Shown here piece after piece: positions 532-60,764 of a stretch of DNA of 64,000 nucleotides. The DNA comes from Patescibacteria group bacterium (GTDB lineage Bacteria > Patescibacteriota > Patescibacteriia > UBA1558 > GWA2-36-10). Each line of letters opens with the position of its first letter. Within the stretch, counting starts at the first letter, position 1. The notes beneath the pieces were generated by a model that made no database searches, had not been told where the DNA came from, and worked only from the letters and a program-made list of their open reading frames with translations. The translations under genes were made by a program, and so were the position numbers. The DNA is taken from positions 290,097 through 354,096 of the forward strand of contig JAHJQF010000001.1 of the NCBI GenBank assembly GCA_018819405.1, written 5' to 3'.

Positions 532-546
532 GCCAGCCCCTGCCAC

Positions 547-583: not shown

Positions 584-650
584 CAAAAAATTCCCAAACA
601 AAAAACAATCTCTAAAAGATTGTTTTATAATATGAATAGAAAATTCGATT

Positions 651-746
651 TCATACAACAGACAAGCGTATGCGAAGTCGTGATTGAGCCTATGTGGTAA
701 AATTCGCGTAGCGACCACATAGGCGAAAGAACGATTTGGGTGAGCG
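651..746. repeat. Site-A copy 1 (~95 bp: 5' arm CAACAGACAAGCGTATGCGAAGTC, variable covarying stem-loop, 3' box GATTTGGGTGAGCGG)
   Basis: Stem 688-697 (CCTATGTGGT) pairs with 713-722 (ACCACATAGG). The 3' box abuts the stop of minus ORF 749-1102. Confidence 0.8.
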
Positions 747-748
747 GA

Positions 749-1102: not shown

Positions 1103-1125
1103 AGTATTTTATTTAGTCCGCGAAC

Positions 1126-1154
1126 CGCATACGCGGTGTTGGGTGATGTACGAC
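1126..1154. repeat. Site-B copy 1 (CGCGAACCGCATACGCGGTGTTGGGTGATGT)
   Basis: Reverse-complement of the Site-A 5' arm. Internal CCGC-ATAC-GCGG hairpin. Confidence 0.8.
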
Positions 1155-1168
1155 GAATTCCCAGAATT

Positions 1169-1570
1169 TTATTTATTAAAAGTTTGTTTTATTCTTTTTG
1201 CTATTTCTTCAGGATATAATAGAATATTATCTAAATTATCTAATTTTATCCATTCCAAATTATATTGGTTATTTGGATTATTTCTTCCAGTTTCAGGCCA
1301 ACCTAATTTAATTTTTCCTTCAAATGTTTTAGCTAAGAAATAATATCCGTAATGGTGCTCATCTTTATATTCCCAAAGTAATTTATCCAAAACTATGTCT
1401 AAATTAGTTTCTTCTTTTATTTCTCTAATAGCGGTTTCTTCAGATTTTTCGTTTTTTTCTATTGTTCCTCCAGGAAATGCATAATACTCGTTATCATTTT
1501 TAATTCTATGTATTAAAAGAATTTTTTCATCTTTGATTATAATTACTGCTGATCTTTTATGATATTGCAT
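1169..1570 (-). CDS. Nudix hydrolase
   Basis: Nudix box GGTIEKNEKSEETAIREIKEETNL (GX5EX7REUXEEXGU). Confidence 0.75.
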   Translation of the reverse strand: MQYHKRSAVIIIKDEKILLIHRIKNDNEYYAFPGGTIEKNEKSEETAIREIKEETNLDIVLDKLLWEYKDEHHYGYYFLAKTFEGKIKLGWPETGRNNPNNQYNLEWIKLDNLDNILLYPEEIAKRIKQTFNK

Positions 1571-1602
1571 AGTTTTAAAAAATTCTGGGAATGAGGAGTA
1601 TT

Positions 1603-1700
1603 TCGCCTAACAGACAAGCGTATGAGAAGTCACGAGTGACTGGAGGTGATAGAATCGCACGGAGTGCTATCACCGAAAGGAACGAGTGATTTGCGCGAAG
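1603..1700. repeat. Site-A copy 2
   Basis: CCTAACAGACAAGCGTATGAGAAGTC arm. Stem GGTGATAG (1645-1652) pairs with CTATCACC (1667-1674), loop AATCGCACGGAGTG. Box GATTTGCGCGAAG. Confidence 0.8.
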
Positions 1701-1713
1701 AGAAATAAAGTTT

Positions 1714-1753
1714 TTGCTTAATTATTGACTAATTACTATATAAATGATAGGGT
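1714..1753 (+). promoter_or_regulatory. putative promoter for ORF 1820-2146, with CTGGCTAGGCCAG palindrome at 1767-1781
   Basis: TTGCTT/TTGACT -35 candidates and a TATATA -10. Palindrome lies between promoter and RBS AAAGGAGGTG. Confidence 0.4.
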
Positions 1754-1819
1754 ATTTTATTAGTTCTGGCTAGGCCAGAGTAGTTCATTACTCTAAACCT
1801 CTGAAAGGAGGTGAAAAAT

Positions 1820-2146
1820 ATGTCTTCCAATTTGGTTGGTTTGAAACTCGATGGCTACACTGTCCAGAAGGTGTTCGAAGTCTTCAGGGTCGACGAAGAC
1901 GGCATGAAGGTCAAGTCAGTCGACTTCTTCATGGACGGTGGTGTAGCCACAGCTTGGACTCAAGGTCTGGCTGACCGCCACTTCCACAAGACCGTCGAAG
2001 TGCTCGTCATCAGCAACGGTGAAAGCCATTTCCTTTTCGGAGGAGAGGAAGTCAACATCCACGATGACACGAGTGCCCTTCTTCAGGTTCGACAGAAGGC
2101 TCTGTCCAAGCTGACTTCGGAAGAACGGGCTGTACTCGGCCTGTGA
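1820..2146 (+). CDS. hypothetical protein, high-GC, opposite strand to array
   Basis: ATG 1820 is 8 nt after AAAGGAGG. ~58% GC in a ~30% GC context. Own terminator at 2153-2191. Confidence 0.55.
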   Translation: MSSNLVGLKLDGYTVQKVFEVFRVDEDGMKVKSVDFFMDGGVATAWTQGLADRHFHKTVEVLVISNGESHFLFGGEEVNIHDDTSALLQVRQKALSKLTSEERAVLGL

Positions 2147-2152
2147 TCATTT

Positions 2153-2191
2153 GCCGCCTGGCCTGAAAACTGGGCGGCTCTTTTATTTTTT
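2153..2191 (+). terminator. rho-independent terminator
   Basis: GCCGCC-TGGCCTGAAAACTG-GGCGGC followed by a T-run. Confidence 0.65.
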
Positions 2192-2207
2192 AAAAAACTT
2201 TATTTCT

Positions 2208-2239
2208 CTTCGCCTCATACGCGGTGATAGATGATGACC
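2208..2239. repeat. Site-B copy 2 (variant CTTCGCCTCATACGCGGTGATAGATGATGACC)
   Basis: Shares the CATACGCGGTG core and the GATGAT/GATGT tail. Confidence 0.65.
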
Positions 2240-2251
2240 AATTCCATGGCG

Positions 2252-3004
2252 TTATAAATTATTAATTTTTTTATAGGTAGCTATACCCGTACAATGAAGT
2301 TGTTGTCCATCTAAGACATGGTCATACTTTATATTATTATTAGATATATATTCTATTAGCCAATTTTTGATGTCAGTATTTATAAATTTTAATAAATATT
2401 TAGTTTGGTTGTTTATGAAATTTATTATCTGTAGTGTCTCAACTTTTTTGCGACCTCTTTCATCAATATATGTTTTTTCTGGTCCATTACTATTTATCAT
2501 AGCAAATGACAATGGTTTCGTTCCAAATATGACTATTTGAGATTTGTAATGAATTATTTTTTCTCTTTGTTCTTTTAATTTGAAAATCCATTTTTTATTT
2601 TTGTCTAATATTTTTTTTAATGCAATGTCTATAGTAGGTTTTTTTTCTAACGATTTATATAAATCATGTATACTCATTTCTTGGTCTTGCGGATGAGCAG
2701 GGCCTGTGGGGGTTTTTAGATTTCTGGTATTTTTTGGCAATGTCTGCCATATTATATAAGCTATATCGTTTAGTAATATTCTTTGTCTTATTATAAAACT
2801 TTCTAGATCAGCTGCTATATTATAGTGGTTTGGTTCGTTTTTGTTAGTTTCAGAAATTATTCGATCGTAGTATAAAAAAAGTCTAGATAGTGACCAAAAA
2901 ATAGCATTTGTATTGAAATAATAATGTTTTTTGAAGTGTTGAAAGCCAAAATTGGTAAGCACATCAAAAATTGGCAATTCTAAATATTCATTTTTTCTTA
3001 TCAT
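2252..3004 (-). CDS. hypothetical protein (array cargo)
   Basis: 250-aa ORF with no recognisable motif. Confidence 0.5.
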   Translation of the reverse strand: MIRKNEYLELPIFDVLTNFGFQHFKKHYYFNTNAIFWSLSRLFLYYDRIISETNKNEPNHYNIAADLESFIIRQRILLNDIAYIIWQTLPKNTRNLKTPTGPAHPQDQEMSIHDLYKSLEKKPTIDIALKKILDKNKKWIFKLKEQREKIIHYKSQIVIFGTKPLSFAMINSNGPEKTYIDERGRKKVETLQIINFINNQTKYLLKFINTDIKNWLIEYISNNNIKYDHVLDGQQLHCTGIATYKKINNL

Positions 3005-3024
3005 ATATAATGGAATTGGTTTTC

Positions 3025-3120
3025 ATCTATCAGGCTAGTGTATGCGAAGTTCTGCTTGAATTTTATGCTAAAATAGCACGGAGTGCAAGCATAAAATGAA
3101 AAGTAGAATTTGGGTGGAGC
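3025..3120. repeat. Site-A copy 3
   Basis: Stem ATTTTATGCT pairs with AGCATAAAAT, loop AAAATAGCACGGAGTGCA. Box GAATTTGGGTGGAGC. Forms a ~195-bp composite with Site-B copy 3 that is duplicated at 14767-14962. Confidence 0.8.
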
Positions 3121-3186
3121 AGTGTTAGTTTAGTTTAAACTATATAAAAACAGATAAATATTACTTTACCTGTTCTTTGATATTGC

Positions 3187-3220
3187 TTCGCGAAACCGCA
3201 TACGCGGTGTTGGCTGATGT
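3187..3220. repeat. Site-B copy 3
   Basis: CGCGAAACCGCATACGCGGTGTTGGCTGATGT. Ends 2 nt before the stop of ORF 3222-4025. Confidence 0.8.
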
Positions 3221-3221
3221 T

Positions 3222-4025
3222 TTAATTAAATTTTGTCTTTAATTCTTCCAAAGTTTTTCGCATTAATTCATCTGCTTTTTTGCTTTTTTCTTGTATTTCT
3301 TCAATGGAGTTTGTTTTGTATAAATCTTCGATTTCCTGAACAACTTCTGGTGGCAAATCAACTGACGCATGTTTAAGACCTATGTTTGGCCACTGCGGAG
3401 AATAAAGAAGCCTCAATGCTTCAATAAGTTTGTCTAAAATTAGATCGTGATATATTTTGAGCGCATCAAGATAGTTTTCTCGTTTTAATTCTCGTTCTAG
3501 ACACATGTTACGAAGAGAAACTCGGGCTTCAATATTTTCGATTTGAGCTATAATATTTTTGCGTTCATTTTCTTCGCTTCCTGATTCAGTTTCTAAAATA
3601 CCTTTTTTGTCGAACAATGTGGTTTTACCCTGTGCTTTTAATTTCGTAGAGTCAGAGTATGTTTGCAGAGTAATATCGATAATTAAAAATTTTGATGTGC
3701 CCTGCACATGATAAAGCATTTTGGGCCAATCATATCCAGGTCGTGTATGTTCAAGTTTAAAATCAATATTCGACAATGCGGCTTCTATCGTTTGAATAAC
3801 GCTTTCTATATTTTCGTCTTCTATGACAAGACGTACATCGATATCAGAATATTCGTCCACGGTACCATGTACATCTGCTCCTTCAAGAAAAAAAGCAAAA
3901 ACAGATGAATTGCCTTCAAGAGCGCTATGAAGCTGATCAATAATTTCTTTTCTCTTCTCTATTGTATTTTCTGGTTTTTGTTCGTTTTCTTGCCCTATGT
4001 TTATAGGTAACTCGTTCTTATTCAT
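3222..4025 (-). CDS. nucleotidyltransferase-domain protein
   Basis: G-x(n)-DID motif (LEGADVHGTVDEYSDIDVRLV) typical of the Pol-beta-like NTase fold. Substrate unknown. Confidence 0.5.
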   Translation of the reverse strand: MNKNELPINIGQENEQKPENTIEKRKEIIDQLHSALEGNSSVFAFFLEGADVHGTVDEYSDIDVRLVIEDENIESVIQTIEAALSNIDFKLEHTRPGYDWPKMLYHVQGTSKFLIIDITLQTYSDSTKLKAQGKTTLFDKKGILETESGSEENERKNIIAQIENIEARVSLRNMCLERELKRENYLDALKIYHDLILDKLIEALRLLYSPQWPNIGLKHASVDLPPEVVQEIEDLYKTNSIEEIQEKSKKADELMRKTLEELKTKFN

Positions 4026-4045
4026 ATTTAAAATTTAATTAATAT

Positions 4046-4142
4046 TTCAGCTAACAGACGTGCGTATGCGAAGTCGTGACTGAGCGAATATGATAAAATT
4101 ATTTGAAATCATATTTGCGAAAGAATGATTTGGGTGAGCGAG
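4046..4142. repeat. Site-A copy 4
   Basis: AGCTAACAGACGTGCGTATGCGAAGTC arm. Stem AATATGAT pairs with ATCATATT. Box GATTTGGGTGAGCGAGCCC. Confidence 0.8.
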
Positions 4143-4151
4143 CCCTTTTTA

Positions 4152-4334
4152 TTATTTGTCTTTTTCTTCAGTAGGTGGCACATAAATAACATCTTTTTTA
4201 TTATTAGGATTTATGCCTTCGCTAATTAGGTAATCCTCGTGCTCTTTGTTAAGTTCAGAAACCTCTCTTGTAAAAATACGAAATCCGATATATGCCAGAG
4301 CAGGTACTATAGGTATAAGTAATTTCCAATCCAT
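4152..4334 (-). CDS. small membrane protein (60 aa)
   Basis: N-terminal TM helix. Flanked by Site-A and Site-B. Confidence 0.4.
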   Translation of the reverse strand: MDWKLLIPIVPALAYIGFRIFTREVSELNKEHEDYLISEGINPNNKKDVIYVPPTEEKDK

Positions 4335-4354
4335 ATTTTTTTGTTAATTATTTA

Positions 4355-4391
4355 GCTCGCGAACCGCATACGCGGTGATAGGTGATGTGAT
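4355..4391. repeat. Site-B copy 4
   Basis: AGCTCGCGAACCGCATACGCGGTGATAGGTGATGTGAT. Confidence 0.8.
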
Positions 4392-4409
4392 AAAAATTTT
4401 AATATTTTA

Positions 4410-5219
4410 TTACCAATAACCGTTTTGATTATTTTGCCTAGCATTCCTTTTTTTGAATTCTCTTTCTTCAATAGAATTATACAGCGCAGTTTTTAGGATT
4501 TTAATATCATTATTGTCTAGATAATTTAGAAAATCATCAATGGTCTTTTTTGATACAACATCAATTAGAAAATATTCTGGCTTGTCTTTATATGTGTATT
4601 CAACTTCAATTTCAAAATTATTTTTAATATCTTCATATTTATTACCATCACTAGCCGCTCGTTTAAATTTAGTGAAGTCAGGGACTAATATTAGTGGATA
4701 ATTTACAGTGTTGTAGTTTCCACCTCTTTTATTGGAGTAAAAGAGACTTGCATGCATGACTTCGTTTTTTGCTTTATCCAAGATCTTGTTATCATTTTCT
4801 GTACTAAATTCCTTTACGGCTTCATTATCTTTTAAATAATGGTGCATCTTATTTTCGTAATTTAGGTAAAAATCTTCTTGATTTTGAAGGATGGGATTAT
4901 TTTTTGCTAATTGTTTAGACTTTATTGGATCTTTATCTAAAAACCAAAATACTATATGTGGTTTAATATACTTACACTCTATTATTAATCTTATCGTTAA
5001 TGTCTCTGTAGAATTACTGAACATACCACCGCCAACTTGAATATTTTTTTCAGCAATTATATCAATTTCTCTAGGTTTATTTTCAACAGGATCATTATAG
5101 TGTGGGCTATTTGTCACTGTCCATTCTTTTTCTTCTAATAATTTTGAAATTGTTAAGTGAAAGTCATGTCCACTGTCTCCCATTATTTTTTCTATGATTT
5201 TACCAGTATCTTTTTCCAT
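4410..5219 (-). CDS. hypothetical protein, possible PD-(D/E)xK nuclease fold
   Basis: REIDIIAEK ... IIECKY resembles a D...ExK nuclease motif. Weak. Confidence 0.4.
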   Translation of the reverse strand: MEKDTGKIIEKIMGDSGHDFHLTISKLLEEKEWTVTNSPHYNDPVENKPREIDIIAEKNIQVGGGMFSNSTETLTIRLIIECKYIKPHIVFWFLDKDPIKSKQLAKNNPILQNQEDFYLNYENKMHHYLKDNEAVKEFSTENDNKILDKAKNEVMHASLFYSNKRGGNYNTVNYPLILVPDFTKFKRAASDGNKYEDIKNNFEIEVEYTYKDKPEYFLIDVVSKKTIDDFLNYLDNNDIKILKTALYNSIEEREFKKRNARQNNQNGYW

Positions 5220-41983: not shown

Positions 41984-43492
41984 TTACAACCCCCAGTTTT
42001 TGGTTTCTTTGGCGACCATCATACAGTCGCCGTTGACTTCTTGCATCCATTGGAATCGAAGCTTGGTTAGCTCCTCAGGAGTCAAACCACCTACAGGGAA
42101 TGCCGCTCGTTCGTGGCTCGTTCGGAGATCAAGATCAGGGAACAAAGACTGAAATTTGTTGTAGGCCATGGTACCAGGAATGGCTGTAACGATGAAAATC
42201 ATCGCATAAGCCAACCCAACTTGCTTCAATTTTATGGCGTATTCTACCGTCCTTTCCATGTCTTGCAGAGACTCGTTTTGAAAGCCAACCATGAAGCCAC
42301 CGACTACTTCAATACCAGAATTGGTAGCGTAGCGGACAATTTCTTCAGCTGGTTCTACTCTGGTGTTGATGTGGGGCTTATGACTTTCTATCAAGGATTG
42401 AGGATTTGCCGACTCAATAGCTAAGTAGAAGCGGTAGCAACCAGACTCGGCAAGCTTGTTTAAGACTTGCTTATAAGTCAGGTTATGTCCCGGCTTCATA
42501 AACTTGAACATTGAGAGGCCACCCTCTTCAAACCAGCTCATGCTGTGTTTTTTCAGGATGTCACAGATAGCCATTGCTCTCTGCATGTCAGCAAAGAACA
42601 TGTCGTCTTCGACAACTAGCTCAGTGACACCAGCTGCTTTTAGAAGCACGACTTCTTGTTCAAATCTAGCTAGGCTGTAGTAGCGAATGTTTCCCGCCAT
42701 AATATGAATATGGCAGAAGTCACATTTCAGCGGACAACCTTGGCTAGACATGATGTAAGCAAGTCTTCCTTCTTTCTGGTGGCGACTCCCACCTGTATGC
42801 TCGGGCGTGTCATACATTGGGTGAAGTGGGATTTCCAAACGGCGCGGTGCCAGAAGGTCCAGATCGGGTAGTAATCCACGACCAGGATTGTCTACTGGCT
42901 TACCAATCGAATCTTTATAACTTACTCCGAGAACGGGAGTGAAGTTACGTGATGATTGGTTGGATTCCAGGGAGTAGCAGAGCTCAGGAAAGCTCACAAC
43001 TCCTTCTTTTCGAATTACCATGTCAACGTTTGGATCCTCTAATACCCTTTCTATATCACCAGTGGCATTGGAGCCACCTTCGGTGATAATTGCTTTGGGG
43101 TAGGCCTCTTTGGTTAGGGCAGCGACTCGGGCGACATTGTTTGCTTGGTTGCTAAACAAGCTAGTAATGCCGACAATGTCAGGATTGAATTGACTTAGCA
43201 GTTTTCTTAGCTGCTGGTCAGTTAATCCATAGCGGATACTGCCGTCATCTTGTGGGGTGAATTGGTTATAGGCAGCCATGCAGGCATCAATGAAAATTAC
43301 ATTGAAACCTTTGGCAACCAATTCAACAGCAATGAGCTCTAATCCTAGGGGGCAACCAGCTCTACGAGTTTCATATTTTTCAAAGAAACTATAGAATGGC
43401 ACTAGAAGAAGTACAGTCAAACGACTTTCTTCTTCGTTGTTGTAAATAACACCCTCGGGGATTATTTTTACCGACATTTTCGGATTCATCAT
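41984..43492 (-). CDS. B12-binding radical SAM enzyme
   Basis: N-terminal cobalamin-binding Rossmann segment. CPLKCDFCHIH (CxxxCxxC). GC ~50%, above genome background. Confidence 0.7.
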   Translation of the reverse strand: MMNPKMSVKIIPEGVIYNNEEESRLTVLLLVPFYSFFEKYETRRAGCPLGLELIAVELVAKGFNVIFIDACMAAYNQFTPQDDGSIRYGLTDQQLRKLLSQFNPDIVGITSLFSNQANNVARVAALTKEAYPKAIITEGGSNATGDIERVLEDPNVDMVIRKEGVVSFPELCYSLESNQSSRNFTPVLGVSYKDSIGKPVDNPGRGLLPDLDLLAPRRLEIPLHPMYDTPEHTGGSRHQKEGRLAYIMSSQGCPLKCDFCHIHIMAGNIRYYSLARFEQEVVLLKAAGVTELVVEDDMFFADMQRAMAICDILKKHSMSWFEEGGLSMFKFMKPGHNLTYKQVLNKLAESGCYRFYLAIESANPQSLIESHKPHINTRVEPAEEIVRYATNSGIEVVGGFMVGFQNESLQDMERTVEYAIKLKQVGLAYAMIFIVTAIPGTMAYNKFQSLFPDLDLRTSHERAAFPVGGLTPEELTKLRFQWMQEVNGDCMMVAKETKNWGL

Positions 43493-45116: not shown

Positions 45117-46031
45117 TTATCTTGCCTGGTAGTTGGGGAGACCAACTACGCAAGGCAAAGCGGTGTCTGCGACGTGAAGCATTTCCGAAGTGATGTCTTG
45201 ACCTCCGCCGATGGTGGCATTGAACACCTTCACTTCCTGCTGGACGTCTACCTGGAGTGTCAGTCGTTGGTAGTGTTCAGCAAGGTGAAGAAGCGTGTGC
45301 AATATGTTGCCTGCCATCTTGCCGAGTGAAGGGACATCCTGCAGTGGATGAACTCGCTCGTCGAGAAATACTTGGGTGATTCGCTCTGATCCATATTCGA
45401 GTACTGCTTGGAGCAGTATAGCGACCTCTACGCTGTAACCAGAATAGAAGGTTGCTTTCTCGAGGAACTTGCGAGTCCCAGCATATTCTCCAGCCAGGGG
45501 CTGTATGAAATCGGCGGTTTCGGGAAATAGCATATTGAGGAAAGGTCGAGCTAGAAGCTCGGTTACCCTAGCGTCACCTTTGGGTCGCTTGTAGTATCCC
45601 TTGGTAAAGACTACCTCAGGATCCATCAGGAAGGGAGCGATAATTCCCAAGATGAAACGGGGGTGGATGTTCTCTATGTCGGTGTCAATCCAGGCGACGA
45701 CATCGCCAGTGGTATAGTACACACTACTCCATAGATTCCAGCCTTTTCCTCTTGCTAAGGGGATAGATATGGCCTTGGCAGTATGCTCATCTTGAATTGC
45801 TTTGAAGCCAAGCTGAGAACACATATCCAAGGTGTTGTCGGTTGATCCGCTGTCGAGCACGATGATCTCATCGACCAATGGCTGACATGACATAGCACAC
45901 TCGATGACACGAACAACTGTTGTCTCCTCATTTTTGACGGGGAGAGCCAAGCTGATCGTTATTTGGCGCTCTTGTTTGAGAGCCAAGAGGTGCGCCATGT
46001 CAGCGGCGTCTAAGTACGACATATATTTCAT
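45117..46031 (-). CDS. family-2 glycosyltransferase
   Basis: GT-A fold motifs VKNEE...LDSGSTD. GC-rich. Confidence 0.65.
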   Translation of the reverse strand: MKYMSYLDAADMAHLLALKQERQITISLALPVKNEETTVVRVIECAMSCQPLVDEIIVLDSGSTDNTLDMCSQLGFKAIQDEHTAKAISIPLARGKGWNLWSSVYYTTGDVVAWIDTDIENIHPRFILGIIAPFLMDPEVVFTKGYYKRPKGDARVTELLARPFLNMLFPETADFIQPLAGEYAGTRKFLEKATFYSGYSVEVAILLQAVLEYGSERITQVFLDERVHPLQDVPSLGKMAGNILHTLLHLAEHYQRLTLQVDVQQEVKVFNATIGGGQDITSEMLHVADTALPCVVGLPNYQAR

Positions 46032-47203
46032 GATTCACCTCCTATCATAGCACTACAGACCTTGCGGACAGCAGTGCAGCAGACGTCAACGAAATGACTG
46101 GTCACGTCGGGGTTGGTGTATAGGTTAAACAGCGATGTTGTCACCCGGTGTGAAACTACAGGCTGGTTGGAACCAGCAAATACCGCAGTTCTAGAAAGTG
46201 CTACTGGGTAAAGACAATTGACCATGGCTCCTTCAGCCCTTACAGCCTTAAGAAACCATTCTCGATGTGCTGATAGTTTGGTCATAAGGACTGCAGTCAG
46301 GCAGTGATTGACGTGACCATCTGCATCATCTTGGAACTGTAGGTGAAGTTCGTTCAGACCGTCACGATAGAGCGCAGCGTTATAACAGCGCGAGCGATTG
46401 AGGTCCGGCAGCTTACGCAGTTGGACAAGCCCAATAGCCGCCTGTAACTCTGTCATTGCGTAGTTGTAGCCGAGTTTATCGTAGTCGTATACGGCCAGGT
46501 TATCACTGGTCAATCCGTGTCGGGTCAGCGATCTACACCGCCGAGCCAACTCTTCATTTCTAGTGACAACCATTCCACCCTCTCCGCAGCTCATGTTCTT
46601 CGTTTGGTAGAAACTATAGCAGGCAATGTCTCCGAAGGTACCTACTATTTGCCCACTAATAGTAGCTCCATGAGCTTGGGCGCAGTCTTCTATCAGACGG
46701 ATTCCACGTTCTTTCACCAGGGACACGATTTGATCCATATCGGCAGGCATGCCGTATAGATGGACCACGATCACCGCCTTGGTGCGATTGGTTATTTTGG
46801 AACGCAGATCACGGACTGACAGGTTGAAGGTGTGGGGGTCAATGTCGCAAAACACGACTTTCGCCCCGGTTTGTAGAACTACCGAAGCGGTGGAAACGAA
46901 GGTCAAGTCAGGGACAATTACTTCGTCTCCATGGCCTATCTGCAAAGCATCGACAGCCGTATGAAGGGCAGTGGTGCCAGACGTAGTTGCAATCGCATAG
47001 GGCAAGTCGTGGTACGCAGCGAACGCTTGTTCAAACTGTTGTACCATTTCGCCCATGCCTGCTCTTGAAACTACACCTCTTCCCATTACCTCCCAGACAG
47101 CTTGCCGCTCTTCTTCGCCGAAGACCCGACCTCGTTTGAGACCTGCTGGATAAACGGCTTGACCACCGTTTATTGCCAGTGAAGGTTCTTCGAACATAAT
47201 CAC
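46028..47203 (-). CDS. DegT/DnrJ/EryC1/StrS-family PLP-dependent sugar aminotransferase
   Basis: Family-typical fold and conserved active-site Lys region. 4-nt overlaps with both neighbours. Confidence 0.8.
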   Translation of the reverse strand: MIMFEEPSLAINGGQAVYPAGLKRGRVFGEEERQAVWEVMGRGVVSRAGMGEMVQQFEQAFAAYHDLPYAIATTSGTTALHTAVDALQIGHGDEVIVPDLTFVSTASVVLQTGAKVVFCDIDPHTFNLSVRDLRSKITNRTKAVIVVHLYGMPADMDQIVSLVKERGIRLIEDCAQAHGATISGQIVGTFGDIACYSFYQTKNMSCGEGGMVVTRNEELARRCRSLTRHGLTSDNLAVYDYDKLGYNYAMTELQAAIGLVQLRKLPDLNRSRCYNAALYRDGLNELHLQFQDDADGHVNHCLTAVLMTKLSAHREWFLKAVRAEGAMVNCLYPVALSRTAVFAGSNQPVVSHRVTTSLFNLYTNPDVTSHFVDVCCTAVRKVCSAMIGGES

Positions 47204-48375
47204 TCCTTGATGTTGTCGGCGAAACTTTCGCCAAGAGGAATAGGATTGGCTCCTATTAGGTGACAGACGGTCTGTCCTAGATCGGCGAAGCTCGCTCGGG
47301 TTCCCAAGTTTGAGCCTGGTCGATCGCCACCGTTCAGTGCCAGAAGAGGTACGTACTCTCGCGTATGTCCCCGGATCGCTATGACTGGATCGCAGCCATG
47401 GTCGGCTACAATCAGCAGAAGATCGTCACGACCGATCATCGGCAGAACTTCGCCAAGTCTTTGGTCGAAGTACATAAGATCACGGGCATATTGACGTGGC
47501 TTACGCGCGTGGCCGGACATATCGAAGTCCGGCACAACGAACATGGCCGCGCCATCACCACCGGTTCCTAAGTGTCTAAGGACAGCGTCCATGACACCAG
47601 CCGAGTCCATGACACCGGGAATTGTCTCGGTGACGAACTCATCGCCTATCACTGAAGCGAGGTGTTCGGTAACCGTGAAAGGCATTCCGACTTCTCGTAT
47701 TCGGCGGAAGAGGTGTTCACGGTTCTTATCAAGTGGCACGACAATATCAGCTCGGTTCTCGGTGCGGACAAAGTCGCCTTTTTCACCGATGAAGGCTCGA
47801 GCGATGATTCTCGTGACATTTTTCCCGATGAAGAAACGAGACATCTTCCAGGCAACGTCATGTAGCCTGGCGGGCGGAACAACACTTTCGTGAGCCGCCA
47901 CCAAGACTACACCGTCATCGCAGGTGTAGACGATTGGCTGGCCTGTTGCGAAATGTTGGTCAGCGCATTCGTCAAACACCTTGAAACCGGAAACGTAGGC
48001 ATTACACAGTGTTAGGGTGCCTATGGCCTGTTGCATTTGCCGCACCAGGTCAGCTGACATCCTAGGGTAGAACGACGCGAATCGTTCTGCGAAGGTAACG
48101 CCTGCCATTTCCCAGACACCAGCAAAGGTGTCGTTTCCTGAGGTTATCTCGGTCATGCGTCCGTAGTGAGCCAGGGGATAATCAACCGTCGGTACATTAT
48201 TGACGCCGACGATATTACCAAAGCCTAGCCTCTCCAAGTTGGGAACTCGGAAGTCCGGGAGCGATTCAGCTGCGTGATGGAATGTGTTAGCGCCAACGCT
48301 CTTGTAGTCTGCTGCGTCAGGCTGAGCGCCGATGCCGACGCTATCCATCACTAGGATAATTATGCGTCGAAACAT
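47200..48375 (-). CDS. deoB: phosphopentomutase (DeoB family, alkaline-phosphatase superfamily)
   Basis: LVMDSVGIGA, SGNDTFAGVWEMAGV, RIIARAFIGEKGDFVRTENR and VADHGCDP blocks match E. coli DeoB. Confidence 0.75.
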   Translation of the reverse strand: MFRRIIILVMDSVGIGAQPDAADYKSVGANTFHHAAESLPDFRVPNLERLGFGNIVGVNNVPTVDYPLAHYGRMTEITSGNDTFAGVWEMAGVTFAERFASFYPRMSADLVRQMQQAIGTLTLCNAYVSGFKVFDECADQHFATGQPIVYTCDDGVVLVAAHESVVPPARLHDVAWKMSRFFIGKNVTRIIARAFIGEKGDFVRTENRADIVVPLDKNREHLFRRIREVGMPFTVTEHLASVIGDEFVTETIPGVMDSAGVMDAVLRHLGTGGDGAAMFVVPDFDMSGHARKPRQYARDLMYFDQRLGEVLPMIGRDDLLLIVADHGCDPVIAIRGHTREYVPLLALNGGDRPGSNLGTRASFADLGQTVCHLIGANPIPLGESFADNIKE

Positions 48376-48396
48376 CGTTCTTTCCTTTCCGACTTT

Positions 48397-49479
48397 TCAG
48401 TCGAGCGCCACTGGTTGCCCAGTTTTCGCCGAAAGATAGATGGCATCAACGATGCTCATCAGTCTGCAGGCCTCCAGAGGGCTAGTCAGTGGTTCATCCT
48501 CTCCTTGTAGTGATCTAACGAAGTTGATTGCAGCAGCTACGCGTCCCATCGTATTATCGAAGGGGACAGAGATGTTCTGGTTATTCGGCTGACCATCTTC
48601 CTGTGAGTATACCTCACAGGTGCCGGTAATTGTATCACCGGCGTTATCTTGGAACAGTCTAGAAACCATAGCCCCAGCTTTCTGCCCTTGCAGGGTCACA
48701 AAGCATTTTTCTTCTCGAACCATTTCGGCCCAAGAAATGTGGAGCGTGAGCACTTGCCCAGTTTCGAAGGTGATGGTGGCGTGAGCACTTGATTCAACAT
48801 CCGTGACACCGTCTCCGTTTGGTACTCCGTAGGGACCTCTGCGCGAGGGGTCATCCATGAAGTCGTTGAAGGTTTGACCCAGCACATGTTTCGGTTTGGG
48901 GTAGCCCATAAAGTATAGGGCTAAGTCTAGCATGTGCATCAGATCCATTAGCGCTCCGCCACCGGCTATTTTCTGGTTGGTGAACCAGTTTCCGTATCCC
49001 GGAATACCTGATCTACGAACCCAAACAGCTTGGGCAGAATTGATCCGGCCAAAGAATCCACTGTTGATACGTTGGATGATCTCCAGTGATTCTGGCCGTG
49101 CTCGATTGTTGAAGTCAAACAGGAGTTGCCTGCCGGATGCGCGAGAAGCCGAGAACATCTCTTGAGCTTCATACGCGTTCATTGCCGGGGGCTTTTCACA
49201 GAACACGTGCTTCCCAGCTCTCAGAGCCTGAATAGTAAGTGTTTTGTGGTGTGCTGGAGGTGTGAGAATGCTGACAGCGTCAACATCCGAAGATGCTAGA
49301 GTCAGCATTTCCTCAAGTGAAGTGAAAACTCGTGGTATCTTCCACTCAGTTGCGGCTTTTTGGGCCGCGACTGGATTCGTGTCGGCAACGCAGGTTATCT
49401 CAGCACCAGCTGAACGGAATCCGTTAGCTTGGTACTTGAGCATTACGCCTGCACCGACGATGCCGATTTTTAGAGACAT
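48397..49479 (-). CDS. Gfo/Idh/MocA-family NAD(P)-dependent oxidoreductase
   Basis: N-terminal Rossmann motif IGIVGAGVM. EKP motif. Confidence 0.75.
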   Translation of the reverse strand: MSLKIGIVGAGVMLKYQANGFRSAGAEITCVADTNPVAAQKAATEWKIPRVFTSLEEMLTLASSDVDAVSILTPPAHHKTLTIQALRAGKHVFCEKPPAMNAYEAQEMFSASRASGRQLLFDFNNRARPESLEIIQRINSGFFGRINSAQAVWVRRSGIPGYGNWFTNQKIAGGGALMDLMHMLDLALYFMGYPKPKHVLGQTFNDFMDDPSRRGPYGVPNGDGVTDVESSAHATITFETGQVLTLHISWAEMVREEKCFVTLQGQKAGAMVSRLFQDNAGDTITGTCEVYSQEDGQPNNQNISVPFDNTMGRVAAAINFVRSLQGEDEPLTSPLEACRLMSIVDAIYLSAKTGQPVALD

Positions 49480-49491
49480 CGTTTTCTCCTT

Positions 49492-50298
49492 CTAGGTTTT
49501 GGTGCAGACGAAAGTTCCGCGTGATCTGTCCAATACGATTGGCAGCTCCCTGCTGGACAACAGATTTCTCATTTCTGCTGCCAGGGCAGATTTTGTAGCT
49601 GCATCGCTGGTCGCTTCTTGGAAACTTGGCAGGGTAGTGTAGTACAGCATGAAGCTGTCTACGTCAGGAAACACCATTTGGAAACCATAGAAGTGGTACC
49701 TTACATCTCCGAAGAGATTATCGAGGTACTCTCTGGCATTTCCGCAGTGGAAAGGTGAACGAGAAAGGCGTACGTTGGTTTCGATGCCAACGCGAGATAT
49801 TGCTTCTTGATGGCATACTCTCAGTAGGTCATCGTCAGGAGTTTTTACTCCAGTTGTAATAATCACCTTTCCCTTTTTTCTGACTACTCGTAGTGATTCT
49901 CTTAACCCATGTTCAAGATCATCCACGTGATTCAGAACGTGTTTGGCAACTACCACATCAAATTGATCATCGCCGAAAGGCAGATTTTCAATTGACGCAA
50001 TAGCGCACAGGGGTGTGCTGATCGTGTTACAAGCTCTCTGGCAAGTGATACTCAACAGTGCTTGTGAAATATCTACGGCAAAGACTTTCCCGCCTTTGTT
50101 CAGTCGTTGGGTGATTATGGCAACATCTCTTCCGGTTCCCGAGCCAGCATCTAATACCAGCTCATCGCCCTCGAAGTGGATGAAGTCTATGCCATATTTA
50201 CCAGCGCCGACGCCGTATCTATCCCAAGCAAGCTCTCTGTTGAGTAGATTGCGCGCAGTCCCGTACTGGGCCTGCGGATCACTGTATTTGATCCTCAT
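49492..50298 (-). CDS. class I SAM-dependent methyltransferase
   Basis: Motif I VLDAGSGTGRD. Acidic-loop motifs. Confidence 0.7.
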   Translation of the reverse strand: MRIKYSDPQAQYGTARNLLNRELAWDRYGVGAGKYGIDFIHFEGDELVLDAGSGTGRDVAIITQRLNKGGKVFAVDISQALLSITCQRACNTISTPLCAIASIENLPFGDDQFDVVVAKHVLNHVDDLEHGLRESLRVVRKKGKVIITTGVKTPDDDLLRVCHQEAISRVGIETNVRLSRSPFHCGNAREYLDNLFGDVRYHFYGFQMVFPDVDSFMLYYTTLPSFQEATSDAATKSALAAEMRNLLSSRELPIVLDRSRGTFVCTKT

Positions 50299-54121: not shown

Positions 54122-54454
54122 ATGAATATTTTAATAACAGGGGCAGCTACAGGAATAGGGAAATCTTTGGCAGATAAATTTTCTAAAGAAGGGTATACAG
54201 TTATAAGCACTTATCATACCACCAAAGGACCTGGCTATCATTTGGATTTATCAAATGAGTCAGATATTAAAACATTGGTCAATAATATAGGTGTGTCTAC
54301 TGATAAGGTGGTCGAGGTAGTGTATAACACGGCGATGAATAAATATAAGTTAAAAAATGGAGCAGATATCAAAGTAAGAGATTATAGATTTGGTACATAC
54401 TTACGTATTCCTTTTATTGTAGCTAGAAAAGTTAAAAAATTAGCATTTAGTTAA
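54122..54454 (+). pseudogene. short-chain dehydrogenase/reductase N-terminal fragment
   Basis: TGAATGIGKS Rossmann motif. Only 110 aa, lacks the catalytic YxxxK region. Confidence 0.5.
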
Positions 54455-54588
54455 GAAAAAAGTTCTAATATCCCTGACTATGTCAACCCATCAAATAATT
54501 ATTCCATCAGTCAGTGGGTAGAGGAATGGTTTTTTGATTGTAAAATAAAAATTATGAGCGCGAGACATAACATCTCGCGCTCGTTTTT

Positions 54589-54969
54589 TCAGTTTATGCT
54601 CAGAGCCCATCGCACAAAGGGGTGAGTTTCTTCTTCGATAAGGTGTCGGATTTCGGGAATTTGGAGAAAATTGGGATCAATTTTCTCCAGCGAAAGCACA
54701 GCGTGACCGCGAGCCAGGTAGTGGTTGTCAGACAGTGCCTTGATGAGGCATTCCTTGGATCGGACCAGACCCAGATCACCTAGGCAGCGTATAGCATCGC
54801 AGCGGATGTAGTCGGTGTCGTCGGTGAGCACCAGATGTTCAACCAACACCACCACCCCCGGATCAGCGATTTTATCGTGCCAGACAATGTTGACAGCCGT
54901 ACCTTTCTGGTAAGGATCTGGGCAAACTAGCCAAGCTTTGAGTTTCACGGGGTCAAAATTCCTCTTCAT
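54589..54969 (-). CDS. HEAT/PBS-lyase-like repeat protein
   Basis: DxxxxIRxxAxxxLGxLG repeat pattern. Confidence 0.45.
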   Translation of the reverse strand: MKRNFDPVKLKAWLVCPDPYQKGTAVNIVWHDKIADPGVVVLVEHLVLTDDTDYIRCDAIRCLGDLGLVRSKECLIKALSDNHYLARGHAVLSLEKIDPNFLQIPEIRHLIEEETHPFVRWALSIN

Positions 54970-54973
54970 GGCT

Positions 54974-55480
54974 TTACCTTTCTAGCAGCTCTCTTAACTG
55001 CTTTAGCGTGTCTTCCATTTGGTAGAGTCGGATGCCAATCATAGGCACCCTTAGGCTTTGTTTATGCATCAAAGACTGCAATTCCTCAACGAAAATACCA
55101 CTACCTCTTAGGTGTTGTCTTTTTTCTCCGTAAATCAGATCTACGGCACAGGAAGGAGAAAAATCGATGCCTAAGACAGCCATCAGCTCGTTGCCGTTGT
55201 CTTTAAACAAGATCATCTGGCCTACTACTGTCTGAGCTAGTTGGCGACATACTGCCCGGTTACTTACCTTGTCATAGTGGGTCTTATGACAAGGCCTACG
55301 ACAAAAGCCGTCAAATATCAGCTCCGGACAGGGCATTTGTACCATGTTTATTTTATGCCTCGTAAGCATTTCTGTGACAGGGGTTATTATAGCCGGGTAT
55401 TTTCGGACAATACCTTGAGCCCTTACCCCTTGAGCTGTAGCACAAAAGGACAAAAAGACAAACCTTTTGCTTCTGTTCAT
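54974..55480 (-). CDS. DUF523-family protein (TudS-like [4Fe-4S] desulfurase family)
   Basis: Conserved Cys ligands including an MPCPE motif. Confidence 0.5.
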   Translation of the reverse strand: MNRSKRFVFLSFCATAQGVRAQGIVRKYPAIITPVTEMLTRHKINMVQMPCPELIFDGFCRRPCHKTHYDKVSNRAVCRQLAQTVVGQMILFKDNGNELMAVLGIDFSPSCAVDLIYGEKRQHLRGSGIFVEELQSLMHKQSLRVPMIGIRLYQMEDTLKQLRELLER

Positions 55481-55500
55481 AGCCGGCCTCCTGTTAAGGT

Positions 55501-55968
55501 TTAGTCCAATTCCTCTATTTCAATTCCATGGGCTTGTAAAAGAGCCGCGAAGACTCCTAGACCTTTCTTTTTTTGTCCTGAGAAGTCCCCGGTATATATG
55601 TGAAGTGCCCCACAAGTGGGGCTACCGGATTTAAGTAACACTTTTTTTATTTCGTTTTTTTGAATAATATCCAAAGCAAGTTTTGCTCCCTTGATAAATA
55701 CTTCAGTGTAATCAATACCATATTTATCTACTATTTTGGCTTTACCAGCCAATACATCTTTGCCATCGCCGCTTGATATTTCGCAAGCAGGCCTGGGAGT
55801 TGGCAATCCAGCTAGCACTTCCGGGCATATTATCAGAGATTTGCCTTTTAAAAATTCTTTTATAGCTTTAGGATTATTTTTACCTTTTTCATTCCAGCGG
55901 CAGGGTATACCTAAGAGGCAAGCGCTTATTGCTTGATTTAAATTATCTTTGTTTTTATTGTCCTCCAT
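55501..55968 (-). CDS. DUF523-family protein (TudS-like), second paralog
   Basis: SACLLGIPCRWNEKG and ICPEVLAGLPTPRP motifs typical of DUF523. Start placed at MEDNKNK. Confidence 0.55.
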   Translation of the reverse strand: MEDNKNKDNLNQAISACLLGIPCRWNEKGKNNPKAIKEFLKGKSLIICPEVLAGLPTPRPACEISSGDGKDVLAGKAKIVDKYGIDYTEVFIKGAKLALDIIQKNEIKKVLLKSGSPTCGALHIYTGDFSGQKKKGLGVFAALLQAHGIEIEELD

Positions 55969-56036
55969 ATATTTTAGCAAACTATTATTTTTGCTGGAGA
56001 GGGGAGATTTTTCATCACCCCTCTCTGGGGGATTGA

Positions 56037-56804
56037 CTAAGGCTGCAGAGTGCTCTCGCAGGCCATGATGCGTTTCAGGACTTCGGCCGTATAGCGGGTG
56101 ATCTCCTCGGGTTTGGCCGTGGAAAATGAGTCGGACCACATGCAGACCGGTTCCTGCTTGGGAATGTAGACACCAAGTTCGGCGAGCATTTGGTTGACCA
56201 CCGGCTTGTCGGCCAGGATATCATAGAGAGGCGAGAGGTAGGTCAAGCCGAAGTCGGCATAAATTTTCTTGAGGGGGACCATAAATTCATCGGTCTGTTC
56301 GGGGTAGTCCTTCTGGCGTTCGGCATAGCCGTCGAGGATCAGATGGATGCCGAGCTCCTGGGCGTATCGGGCGGCGGAGTAGTTCATGATCAGCTTGCAG
56401 GCCAGGCAGATCAGCAGTGTGCTGAAGCTGCGTTCTCTGAAATCGGCTTCAATTTGCTGCATACCGACTTGGCGCATCATCATGCTAACGCGTTTCATCT
56501 CGAAGATGATGTCGTTTCCAGGGTTGAGGTCTTGGATTATGCGCAGCTGCCGCTTGGTGGAATCCAGTCGACTGAGCAGGCCGTTGTCGATCAGGAGAAG
56601 ATGGAGTTGGCTGGCCGGAAAGGCCTTACAGAAAGCAGCGGCCACAGCACTGCTGTCACGTCCGCCGGAAAAAAGCAGGACAGCGCGTCCGTCAAAGTCG
56701 GGGACAGAGTTTATGATCCTTTCATGCACCAGCTGGATAGCTTGAGTCGCTAGTTCCTTCATTTCGTGCTCCAATCGTTGGTGTTGTTGATTGTGGGTGA
56801 ACAA
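56037..56804 (-). CDS. PP-loop superfamily ATPase (adenine nucleotide alpha-hydrolase)
   Basis: SGGRDS PP-motif. 255 aa. GC-rich. Confidence 0.6.
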   Translation of the reverse strand: MFTHNQQHQRLEHEMKELATQAIQLVHERIINSVPDFDGRAVLLFSGGRDSSAVAAAFCKAFPASQLHLLLIDNGLLSRLDSTKRQLRIIQDLNPGNDIIFEMKRVSMMMRQVGMQQIEADFRERSFSTLLICLACKLIMNYSAARYAQELGIHLILDGYAERQKDYPEQTDEFMVPLKKIYADFGLTYLSPLYDILADKPVVNQMLAELGVYIPKQEPVCMWSDSFSTAKPEEITRYTAEVLKRIMACESTLQP

Positions 56805-56999
56805 AGTGCTGTTGTCTGAACTTTACTTGAAATTAGCAAAAAAATCAAGTTAAATTTTTGGTAAAAAAATATCGTTCAAAACAAACTACAACGCATTTAC
56901 TATTTGTTCTACTGTGCCACCCCATCCCGTATAGCTACTTCGTAGCCACGGGACGCGGTCAAAAAGTGAGCTTCCGCCAGCTGGCGGATAGCTCGTTTT

Positions 57000-60017: not shown

Positions 60018-60764
60018 ATGAAAGCAGAAGAAATAAAAAAAGTAGTTCAAGATAATTACGGCCAATTAGCCAAACAATCTACCGGTTGTGGTTGCAAATG
60101 TAGTTGCAGTTCAGATACTAGTCAAACAATTTCCAAAAGCATTGGTTATTCGGATGAAGATATAGAGTCTGTGCCCGAGGCTAATATGGGTTTGGGTTGT
60201 GGCAATCCAATTGCTATTGGCAACATCAAAGAAGGAGATGTTGTTTTGGATCTTGGCTCGGGAGCAGGTTTTGATGCTTTTTTGGCCGCCAAAAAAGTTG
60301 GCAAAACTGGCAAGGTTATTGGCGTGGATATGACCCAAGAAATGATTGCCAAAGCTACTATATTGGCCAACAAGTATAAATATCAGAATGTAGAATTCAA
60401 ATTGGGGGAAATTGAAAACCTACCAATAGAGGACAATTCTATTGATATTATCATTAGTAATTGTGTGATAAATTTGGCGCCAGATAAATTAAAAGTATTT
60501 CAGGAAGCTTATCGAGTTTTAAAGCTAGGTGGAAAAATGTATATTTCCGATATTGTTTTACTTGAAGAACTATCAGAAGAGCAAAAAAACAATAAAGACT
60601 TGATAGCCGGCTGTGTGGGGGGCGCTCTTTTAAAAGATATTTATATTGCCAAAGTAAAACAAGCTGGTTTGCAGGTAAAAATTTTAGGAGAAAACAAAGA
60701 AATTAGTAAAGAGCAATATCATGGCATTCCACTGGAAAGTCTATCTTTAGAGATTAGTAAATAG
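60018..60764 (+). CDS. ArsM-like SAM-dependent methyltransferase
   Basis: Motif I VLDLGSGAGFD. N-terminal Cys cluster GCGCKCSC. Confidence 0.55.
   Translation: MKAEEIKKVVQDNYGQLAKQSTGCGCKCSCSSDTSQTISKSIGYSDEDIESVPEANMGLGCGNPIAIGNIKEGDVVLDLGSGAGFDAFLAAKKVGKTGKVIGVDMTQEMIAKATILANKYKYQNVEFKLGEIENLPIEDNSIDIIISNCVINLAPDKLKVFQEAYRVLKLGGKMYISDIVLLEELSEEQKNNKDLIAGCVGGALLKDIYIAKVKQAGLQVKILGENKEISKEQYHGIPLESLSLEISK

Follow-up and report, generated by a model that had tools for sequence, protein, structure and literature searches.

A Patescibacteria operon combines a YcfA-like PP-loop protein, predicted to be an iron-sulfur nucleotide thiolase, with TudS-type partners

Introduction

The closest described systems to the locus reported here are YcfA-YcfC of Erwinia amylovora (PDB 9kq6, 9kq7, 9kq9, and 9kqd; PMC12494993) and TgsB/TgsA of Staphylococcus (PMC7994395). 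YcfA is a PP-loop enzyme that adenylates guanine nucleotides and joins L-cysteine to them; cleavage of this adduct by the pyridoxal phosphate (PLP) lyase YcfC yields 6-thio-GTP, -GDP, or -GMP (PMC12494993). A class-V PLP enzyme accompanies YcfA/TgsB in both the Erwinia and the Staphylococcus clusters (PMC12494993, PMC7994395). The YcfA structure was reported only in 2025, and it was presented as a cysteine-adduct/PLP-lyase exception among thiolases. Tetradecameric assembly is a further feature of YcfA-type synthases. Here we describe a four-gene operon within 64,000 nucleotides of Patescibacteria group bacterium DNA (contig JAHJQF010000001.1, positions 290,097 to 354,096; this whole stretch is called the window). 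It encodes a YcfA-like PP-loop protein, two proteins of the TudS superfamily, and a HEAT-repeat protein. The PP-loop protein resembles YcfA in fold (TM score, 0.8-0.88), in length (241 versus 234 amino acids [aa]; 28% identity), in its ATP/Mg residues (R, D, Q, and E), and in its guanine-stacking and -deprotonating residues (an aromatic, E, and Q). However, it has Arg in place of Tyr128 and three added cysteines predicted to be at the active site. The operon also lacks the PLP C-S lyase, NUDIX, and efflux genes, and it has instead a TudS-type iron-sulfur (Fe-S) partner that is sometimes fused to the PP-loop protein.

Other known systems share parts of this arrangement. The [4Fe-4S] PP-loop insertases TtuA (5mkp), NcsA (6scy), archaeal TtuI/ThiI (PMC9825150), and Fe-S LarE (8cnz) have a PP-loop and a CxxC...C motif in common with the window protein, for which we predict the same mechanism, with cluster-bound hydrosulfide acting on an adenylated carbonyl. 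TtuA, NcsA, and LarE are its second-best structural matches. However, they are far more distant than YcfA (TM score, ~0.5; 13-19% identity), and the window protein lacks tRNA-binding and zinc-finger domains, probably acts on a free purine nucleotide, and has a cluster that is only predicted. The window also encodes one bona fide member of the TudS family (PDB 6z92-6z96; PMC10611767) and a second protein that shares with TudS the fold, Cys triad, Glu, Ser-Pro-Ser, and phosphate-binding Arg but has Ala for Tyr18, no conservation at the Tyr110 position, and a connection to an ATP-using partner. Sulfur removal is the sole known role of the TudS desulfidase superfamily. Finally, ThiI and RudS (TudS-DUF1722) are a PP-loop thiolase and a TudS-type desulfidase for the same thiocarbonyl, 4-thiouridine (s4U) in tRNA (PMC11417400). 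Unlike the genes of the window's module, they are neither in one operon nor fused, and they act on tRNA via THUMP and DUF1722.

Results

The PP-loop protein is most closely related to YcfA

Four consecutive minus-strand genes, encoding PP-loop, TudS, CD3072-like, and HEAT_2 proteins, fill positions 54589 to 56804 of the window. This bears out the initial annotation, which had described a PP-loop gene with an SGGRDS motif followed by two TudS-like genes and a HEAT gene. The end at 56804 used there is an upstream in-frame TTG of the PP-loop open reading frame (ORF). We assign the genes as follows.

56037..56762, minus strand: YcfA-like PP-loop ATP pyrophosphatase, 241 aa, ATG at 56762; predicted [4Fe-4S]-dependent nucleotide thiolase
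55501..55968, minus strand: canonical stand-alone TudS (DUF523; PF04463), called TudS1, 155 aa; predicted [4Fe-4S] thionucleotide desulfidase
54974..55480, minus strand: CD3072-like divergent TudS-related protein, 168 aa, related to PF27735; partner of the PP-loop enzyme
54589..54969, minus strand: small HEAT_2 repeat protein (Pfam HEAT_2), 126 aa; putative accessory or scaffold component

The PP-loop protein is 100% identical to NCBI protein P0001, which is named 7-cyano-7-deazaguanine synthase (QueC). Its match to Pfam QueC was marginal (23.4 bits; cutoff, 22), and it scored 19 bits against the NCBIfam QueC equivalog TIGR00364 (cutoff, 150.3). A profile of 25 homologues matched YcfA with an E value of 1.1e-37 over 208 residues (29-236), whereas the QueC structure 2pg3 was matched with an E value of 0.042. 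Foldseek aligned the AlphaFold2 (AF2) model (predicted local distance difference test [pLDDT], 93.8) to YcfA with TM scores of 0.79-0.88 and a root mean square deviation of ~2.1 Angstrom. The next matches were [4Fe-4S] LarE, TtuA, and NcsA, with TM scores of ~0.5. The closest characterised relative of the PP-loop protein is YcfA of E. amylovora, which was missing from the candidate clades of the initial annotation (QueC, LarE, TtcA, ThiI, and TilS).

We rejected assignments to ThiI, TilS, NAD synthase, GMP synthase, and QueC, for which the matches were below threshold or confined to the PP-loop region. A housekeeping QueC with coincidental neighbours would agree with the NCBI name and the marginal Pfam match, but not with the equivalog score or with the far better match to YcfA than to 2pg3. 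Furthermore, there was no queD, queE, folE, or tgt gene beside the PP-loop gene in the loci of the window's clade that we examined, and relatives keep the link to TudS-like genes, in some cases as a fusion. We regard the QueC explanation as effectively refuted. Profile classification, which the initial annotation had set beforehand as its refuting test, placed the protein with neither QueC nor another housekeeping enzyme. The QueC naming of this clade (P0001, P0005, and P0045) appears to be a propagating misannotation that stems from the marginal Pfam QueC match, and the present assignment corrects it.

The protein has the motifs SGGRDS (residues 32-37, codons at 56652-56669), C119-x2-C122-K123, RQxYPEQ, and E204-x2-C207. 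We mapped the residue roles reported for YcfA (PMC12494993) onto it. The YcfA ATP/Mg residues R18/D19, Q129, and E183 are kept as R35/D36, Q150, and E204, and the guanine residues F132, E134, and Q135 are kept as Y153, E155, and Q156. In our homologue alignment (A1), Y or F occupies the aromatic position, and all of the others are invariant. However, Tyr128, which positions L-cysteine in YcfA, is replaced by Arg149 in 28/28 non-redundant members of the window's clade. Pfam and NCBIfam scans found no THUMP, PUA, zinc-ribbon, or DUF1722 domain in the PP-loop protein or elsewhere in the operon.

A cysteine triad predicted to be at the active site

YcfA residues L98, E101, and S186 correspond to C119, C122, and C207 of the window protein, and S186 is located three residues after a Mg-ATP ligand. 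We collected 84 non-redundant superfamily members from genomes and metagenomes, three of which end at a contig edge before the third site. Among the 81 that could be scored, 54 had all three cysteines, 26 had none, and only 1 was mixed. Fe-S-dependent PP-loop thiolases are marked by a CxxC...C triad next to the ATP site, and we predict that C119, C122, and C207 carry a [4Fe-4S] cluster. The spacing of the triad resembles that of TtuA, which we take to be approximately C128, C131, and C220.

The three-cysteine clade is linked to TudS-like genes

We surveyed 104 loci for gene neighbourhoods. The window's clade, which is mostly from Patescibacteria, has the signature CCK-RQ-[Y/F]PEQ-K-E-C. Linkage was defined as a TudS-superfamily gene on the same strand within 2.5 kb, and full flanks were defined as at least 1.5 kb on both sides. 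Among fully flanked non-redundant loci, a TudS-like gene was present in 10/11 from the three-cysteine clade but in 0/7 from cysteine-less relatives (Fisher p = 2.5e-4). When all loci were counted, the values were 24/31 and, for non-redundant cysteine-less relatives, 0/19 (Fisher p = 2e-8). The juxtaposition of PP-loop and TudS genes is far beyond chance. The neighbourhood check proposed in the initial annotation gave the same picture, with the DUF523 genes of relatives tightly linked to the PP-loop gene and in some cases fused to it.

Gene order varied. In addition to the window's order (PP-TudS-CD3072-HEAT), we found PP-CD3072-HEAT, PP-CD3072-HEAT-TudS, PP-HEAT-TudS, and TudS-CD3072-PP. The invariant part of the module is the PP-loop gene plus at least one TudS-like gene, and the HEAT gene was present in 7/11 fully flanked relatives. 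When the PP-loop gene directly precedes the CD3072-like gene, the two are separated by 2-26 nucleotides (nt) or overlap. The two domains form one polypeptide in L013 (a KSB1 bacterium), L058, P0216, and P0324. In a Clostridia genome (L108), a three-cysteine PP-loop gene and a CD3072-family gene have a one-base overlap and lie beside a Ham1/ITPase-like gene. CD3072-like and HEAT domains are fused in P0079 (L111), which directly follows a 241-aa gene that we take to be the PP-loop gene P0037 from its matching length and contig. Of the two TudS-like proteins, only the CD3072-like one is joined to the PP-loop enzyme by fusion or translational coupling.

A cysteine-less relative from Amycolatopsis (L016) sits with a class-V PLP enzyme. 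However, no Aminotran_5/PLP enzyme was seen among the annotated neighbours of loci from the three-cysteine clade. Since the two classes differ in their neighbourhoods and fusions, we propose a simple pattern in which PP-loop proteins without the cysteines have a PLP partner and those with all three have a TudS-type partner. The triad, the Tyr128-to-Arg change, and the lack of a visible PLP partner therefore suggest that the window protein belongs to a sister clade of YcfA that inserts sulfur by an Fe-S mechanism.

The two TudS-like proteins belong to distinct subfamilies

TudS1 scored 128.2 bits against PF04463 (cutoff, 34.7), and its profile matched the solved TudS structure 6z92 with an E value of 1.7e-29. 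The reference residues of TudS are Cys10/Cys43/Cys104, Glu45, Ser101, Ser103, Arg17, Tyr18, Pro102, and Tyr110, of which Arg17, Tyr18, Pro102, and Tyr110 were reported to bind 4-thio-UMP (PMC10611767). TudS1 keeps C17, R24, W25, C48, E50, S116, P117, C119, and Y125, with position 118 being T or S and position 25 being W or Y. By alignment, it retains all cluster, catalytic, and 4-thio-UMP-binding residues of TudS. It also has features that the crystallised TudS does not, namely, an invariant Cys23, Cys62 in at least 90% of sequences, and an insert of ~10 aa.

The CD3072-like protein scored below threshold against PF04463 (23.7 bits). Against the NCBIfam model NF045597, "CD3072 family TudS-related putative desulfidase," it scored 105.9 bits, under the cutoff of 130, and precomputed PF27735 matches are on record for several of its homologues. 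The CD3072 family comprises ~950 clusters at 50% identity. A sequence profile did not detect the TudS structure. However, the best PDB folds for the AF2 model (pLDDT, 91) were TudS (E value, 1e-4; TM score, 0.52-0.58), and nothing else in the PDB matched. Comparison with the TudS1 profile by hhalign gave a probability of 79%. Residues C13, C51, E53, S108, P109, and C111 are invariant, and R20 is present in at least 90% of sequences. Both proteins retain the three cluster cysteines, the Glu, and Ser-Pro-Ser, but the CD3072-like protein lacks the stacking aromatic residue. DUF1722, the mark of RudS, was found in neither. The initial annotation had described tandem DUF523 paralogs. Both proteins are indeed in the TudS superfamily, but they are distinct subfamilies, with a relationship visible only at the profile level, rather than recent tandem paralogs.

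The 126-aa HEAT protein matched HEAT_2 with 60.6 bits (cutoff, 27.7) in two stretches. Its invariant residues are A25, H31, R56, L79, D81, and G88, and it has no conserved Cys.

Expression signals, base composition, and mobility

The following elements flank or interrupt the four genes.

56820..56848, minus strand: putative sigma-70-type promoter, low confidence; -35 TTGATT at 56848-56843, 17-nt spacer, -10 TAAAGT at 56825-56820
55976..56025, minus strand: stem-loops between the PP-loop and TudS genes; main hairpin at 55997-56025, GAGAGGGG...CCCCUCUC
54556..54582, minus strand: intrinsic-terminator-like hairpin at the end of the operon; 12-bp stem with 7 GC pairs and a T-rich tail

The putative promoter was read by eye from the sequence and scores below the threshold of a promoter scan. 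A similar TTGATT...TAATAT is present in the closest relative (L025), and most relatives have their own TTGACA/TATAAT-like promoter 40-80 nt 5' of the PP-loop gene. Rfam gave no match upstream of the operon, either at gathering thresholds or with E values up to 1. We ruled out a riboswitch or leader RNA on this result and because the upstream regions of 15 relatives have only promoter-like boxes in common. Upstream of the promoter, a GC-rich stretch contains a perfect palindrome at 56974-56987, CCGCCAGCTGGCGG, with A- and T-runs on either side. This palindrome, which is not conserved in relatives, might serve as an insulator that resembles a terminator in both directions. The terminator-like hairpin at the other end starts 7 nt past the HEAT stop codon.

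The stem-loops between the PP-loop and TudS genes have a minimum free energy of -23.8 kcal/mol (z = -5.6). In 13/13 relatives examined in which TudS follows the PP-loop gene, this junction also had a G/C-rich hairpin, and a U-run often came after it. Its position is kept but its sequence is not (L003, L005, L007, L008, L010, L027, L030, L031, L034, L036, L038, and L048), and in several relatives it resembles an intrinsic terminator with a U-tract. We infer that this hairpin is a partial terminator or an mRNA stabiliser.

The initial annotation had also pointed to raised G+C content (GC), and this was confirmed. The fractions are 0.55 for the PP-loop gene, 0.38 for TudS, 0.44 for the CD3072-like gene, and 0.51 for HEAT, compared to 0.29-0.30 for the flanks and 0.37 for the whole window. 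Therefore, the GC-rich islet is real, but it is mosaic. GC is usually lower in the TudS gene than in the rest of the module (0.38 versus 0.44-0.55 in the window; 0.37 versus 0.52-0.54 in L009). This, together with the hairpin that precedes it, suggests that TudS was recruited secondarily or has a separate origin.

The immediate neighbours of the operon are unrelated to it: an LD-carboxypeptidase, a truncated short-chain dehydrogenase (SDR), a holin-like membrane protein, and methyltransferases. The match of the SDR ORF (54122-54454, plus strand; 110 aa) is confined to the N-terminal 75 residues of these dehydrogenases. The ORF ends ~100 nt short of the operon's terminator and could be what is left of a gene at the edge of the islet. 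We rejected the idea that the islet splits this SDR gene, because no SDR remainder was found in the ORFs from 57000 on or in the genes scanned there.

Flanking genes are different in every genome, each locus has its own promoter-like boxes, and module GC is above that of the surroundings in several genomes. Therefore, the module behaves as a horizontally mobile, autonomous unit. A phage origin was rejected, with only one match for each of two module families in 2.9 million viral contigs. A known defence system was also rejected, since PADLOC v2 had no match for any of the four window proteins with E values up to 0.01.

Discussion

We favour the interpretation that this operon encodes an Fe-S-dependent purine-nucleotide thiolase that has a TudS-type partner in place of the PLP lyase YcfC. 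Judging from sequence and predicted structure, we give this a probability of about 40%. The PP-loop enzyme would bind ATP and a guanine-type (6-oxopurine) nucleotide and adenylate the ring carbonyl in the manner of YcfA, a step for which the homology is strong and the catalytic residues are kept. The free iron of a cluster on C119/C122/C207 could then present a hydrosulfide that displaces AMP to yield the thio-nucleotide, as in the TtuA/NcsA/Fe-S-LarE mechanism, and we hold this step with less assurance. More tentatively, the fusions and the swap of partners hint that the CD3072-like protein might be the sulfur-handling partner in YcfC's place. It might take up sulfur as [4Fe-5S], with salvaged thionucleotides as one possible source, and then deliver it to the thiolase. 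Canonical TudS, as a lower-GC secondary recruit, may hydrolyse thio-nucleoside monophosphates and so feed or reset the sulfur/nucleotide pool. The HEAT protein may be a scaffold bound to the CD3072-like protein, as their fusion suggests.

NUDIX, phosphatase, and efflux genes are all missing from the module, in contrast to ycfABCD and tgsA-F (PMC7994395). Therefore, the thio-nucleotide product most likely stays intracellular, and a secreted 6-thioguanine (6-TG) base is unlikely. The initial annotation had proposed thionucleobase or modified-nucleoside metabolism. That general theme stands, but kinship to YcfA moves the emphasis from salvage or detoxification to ATP-dependent synthesis of thiopurine nucleotides. 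It had offered salvage or nucleic-acid modification. Since the operon encodes no RNA- or DNA-binding domain, we favour free nucleotides over nucleic acids as the target.

A more specific version of the favoured interpretation is a PLP- and cysteine-independent thiopurine route in which a TudS-type donor hands [4Fe-5S] sulfur to the Fe-S YcfA-like enzyme. The donor sulfur would be stripped from scavenged thionucleotides or come from bound sulfide. We consider this relay rather doubtful.

Several points weigh against the Fe-S thiolase interpretation. C119, C122, and C207 might be Zn ligands instead. Fusing a thiolase to a protein with the full set of hydrolytic-desulfidase catalytic residues looks like a futile cycle, and it is conjecture that the CD3072-like protein acts as a donor. 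It is only the residues in common with YcfA that point to the substrate base, and thymidylate-, cytidylate-, and uridine-kinase-like genes also occur near family members. The partnership is flexible, since L001-type loci have only TudS and HEAT, with no CD3072-like gene, and the CD3072-family gene of L113 is alone, without a partner. Furthermore, the junction hairpin, which is often terminator-like, may uncouple PP-loop and TudS expression.

Alternatively, the PP-loop enzyme might make a toxic 6-thioguanine-type nucleotide, as an antimetabolite against hosts, competitors, or phage, with the TudS-like proteins protecting or resetting the producer's own nucleotide pool. YcfA and TgsB homologues do make the antimetabolite 6-TG (PMC12494993, PMC7994395), and both TudS-like proteins appear from their sequences to have a complete hydrolytic desulfidase active site. 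Distant members lie near a DNA methyltransferase with a weak dGTPase-like HD protein, near a TIR-TGT fusion with a SLATT protein, and near an anti-phage dCTP deaminase, and a restriction-modification system adjoins the module in L003. However, covalent fusion of a toxin maker to its antidote would short-circuit production. The missing NUDIX, phosphatase, and efflux genes, the empty PADLOC result, and the near absence of the module from viral contigs also speak against this explanation, which we find rather unlikely. Patescibacteria rely on nucleotide salvage, and a role in salvage or detoxification would have the TudS-like proteins desulfurate scavenged thionucleotides (derived from s4U or 2-thiouridine, or thiopurines) while the PP-loop enzyme carries out a sulfur-independent amidation or amination in the manner of GMP synthase or QueC. 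TudS1 keeps all of the substrate residues of stand-alone TudS, which recycles 4-thio-UMP (PMC10611767), and there are weak matches to GMP synthase and NAD synthase in the PP-loop region. However, amidotransferases match only the first ~60 residues, whereas similarity to the thiolase YcfA is full length. The all-or-none Cys triad, predicted to be at the active site, is a hallmark of sulfur-inserting PP-loop enzymes, and an unrelated amidation would make the TudS-like fusion hard to explain. We therefore judge salvage or detoxification to be unlikely.

HEAT-like repeats bind nucleic acids in some proteins, including AlkD and the QueG C terminus. This would suit a system in which the PP-loop enzyme thiolates a tRNA, rRNA, or DNA base, the HEAT protein binds the nucleic acid, and the TudS-like proteins erase the mark. 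ThiI and RudS provide such a writer-eraser logic (PMC11417400), one CD3072-family member is fused to Tpt1/KptA, and distant relatives lie beside DNA methylases and a TGT-domain protein. However, the PP-loop protein, like YcfA, consists of one minimal domain, and YcfA uses free GTP/GDP/GMP (PMC12494993). The operon also has no THUMP, PUA, zinc-ribbon, or DUF1722 domain. Furthermore, tRNA is not a substrate of stand-alone TudS (PMC10611767, PMC11417400), and the HEAT gene is dispensable in 4/11 loci. Nucleic-acid modification thus seems quite improbable.

All parts of the module belong to known superfamilies, but a description of the partnership itself was not found. Our literature search on CD3072 and on PP-loop/desulfidase partnerships found no account of the module or of the CD3072 family. 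The locus points to a sister clade of YcfA that appears to use the classical Fe-S solution and is wired, in some lineages by fusion, to the TudS superfamily. If the Fe-S thiolase interpretation is correct, it would define a function for the uncharacterised CD3072/PF27735 family, reveal a new sulfur-trafficking logic between Fe-S enzymes, and mean that genome-reduced Patescibacteria make or cycle thiopurine nucleotides. The more doubtful relay, if true, would be the first cluster-to-cluster "trans-thiolation" relay and would imply an intracellular or weaponised 6-thioguanine-type nucleotide in ultra-small Patescibacteria. With four small genes, the hypothesis is directly testable.

Additional observations

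Purine or nucleotide genes recur near relatives of the PP-loop protein, in keeping with the favoured interpretation: guanylate kinase and NUDIX genes in L045, the Ham1/ITPase-like gene in L108, weak dGTPase-like HD genes, and a TGT-domain gene in L013. L045 (5998-9600, in a 25%-GC genome) has a window-clade three-cysteine PP-loop gene without a TudS-like neighbour. It is followed by guanylate kinase after a 3-bp gap and then by a radical-SAM enzyme (SAM, S-adenosylmethionine), a NUDIX hydrolase, and a sulfotransferase. The set resembles a pathway for a small molecule derived from a guanine nucleotide.

A four-gene cluster was recurrent among wider relatives (L058, 610-5676; L061, 5008-9434; L075, 3051-7716; and L103, 5944-10249). 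It consists of a YcfA-like PP-loop protein, a ~395-aa protein, a weak dGTPase-like HD protein, and an N6/N4 DNA methyltransferase. The Cys triad of its PP-loop protein is present or absent, and the L058 copy is fused to a CD3072-like domain. The ~395-aa protein is KaiC/RecA-like only in L058, at the Pfam threshold. Judged from gene sizes only, the same run occurs in L092, L096, L097, and L102. PADLOC found nothing for the PP-loop, 395-aa, and HD components beyond the weak dGTPase match. This cluster may be an undescribed DNA-modification or defence system.

The surroundings of the L013 fusion (209-5125) look defence- or signalling-like, with the PP-loop/CD3072-like protein followed by a 359-aa protein, a SLATT-domain protein, and a TIR-TGT fusion (PADLOC TGT, 81.6 bits). 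In L109 (3229-9479), an IMG/VR contig, a cysteine-less YcfA-like gene lies by an anti-phage dCTP deaminase (PADLOC, 413 bits), a phosphoribosyltransferase-domain protein, and a uridine kinase.

CD3072-family genes also occur in sets outside Patescibacteria (L105, 5966-8357; L106, 1416-6333; L107, 5001-9454; L115, 562-4531; and L114, 4001-5235). These include an AAA ATPase (700-816 aa, weakly IetA-like), a thymidylate-kinase-like protein, and a SAM methyltransferase whose gene overlaps the CD3072-family gene. Several of the sets lie among integrases and transposases, as in mobile islands. In L110, a CD3072-family gene adjoins an IscA/HesB Fe-S carrier gene, which accords with the TudS-type chemistry of the favoured interpretation. 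P0285 (365 aa) is a fusion of RNA 2'-phosphotransferase (Tpt1/KptA, 126 bits) to a CD3072-like domain, the only hint that some CD3072 members act on RNA. The SAM methyltransferases at 49492-50298 and 60018-60764 of the window, and the one beside L003, have only generic class-I similarity to CD3072-associated methyltransferases, and we rejected a connection of any of them to the module.

Elsewhere in the window, five minus-strand genes (45117-50298) make up another GC-rich islet (0.48-0.54), larger than the first. They encode a GT2 glycosyltransferase, a DegT-type aminotransferase, a metalloenzyme-superfamily protein, a GFO/IDH/MocA oxidoreductase, and a SAM methyltransferase. We rejected this islet (45.1-50.3 kb) as part of the finding, and it appears to be a sugar-modification cluster that was acquired and has no relation to the operon. 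The B12-binding radical-SAM gene at 41984-43492 is likewise GC-rich (0.47).

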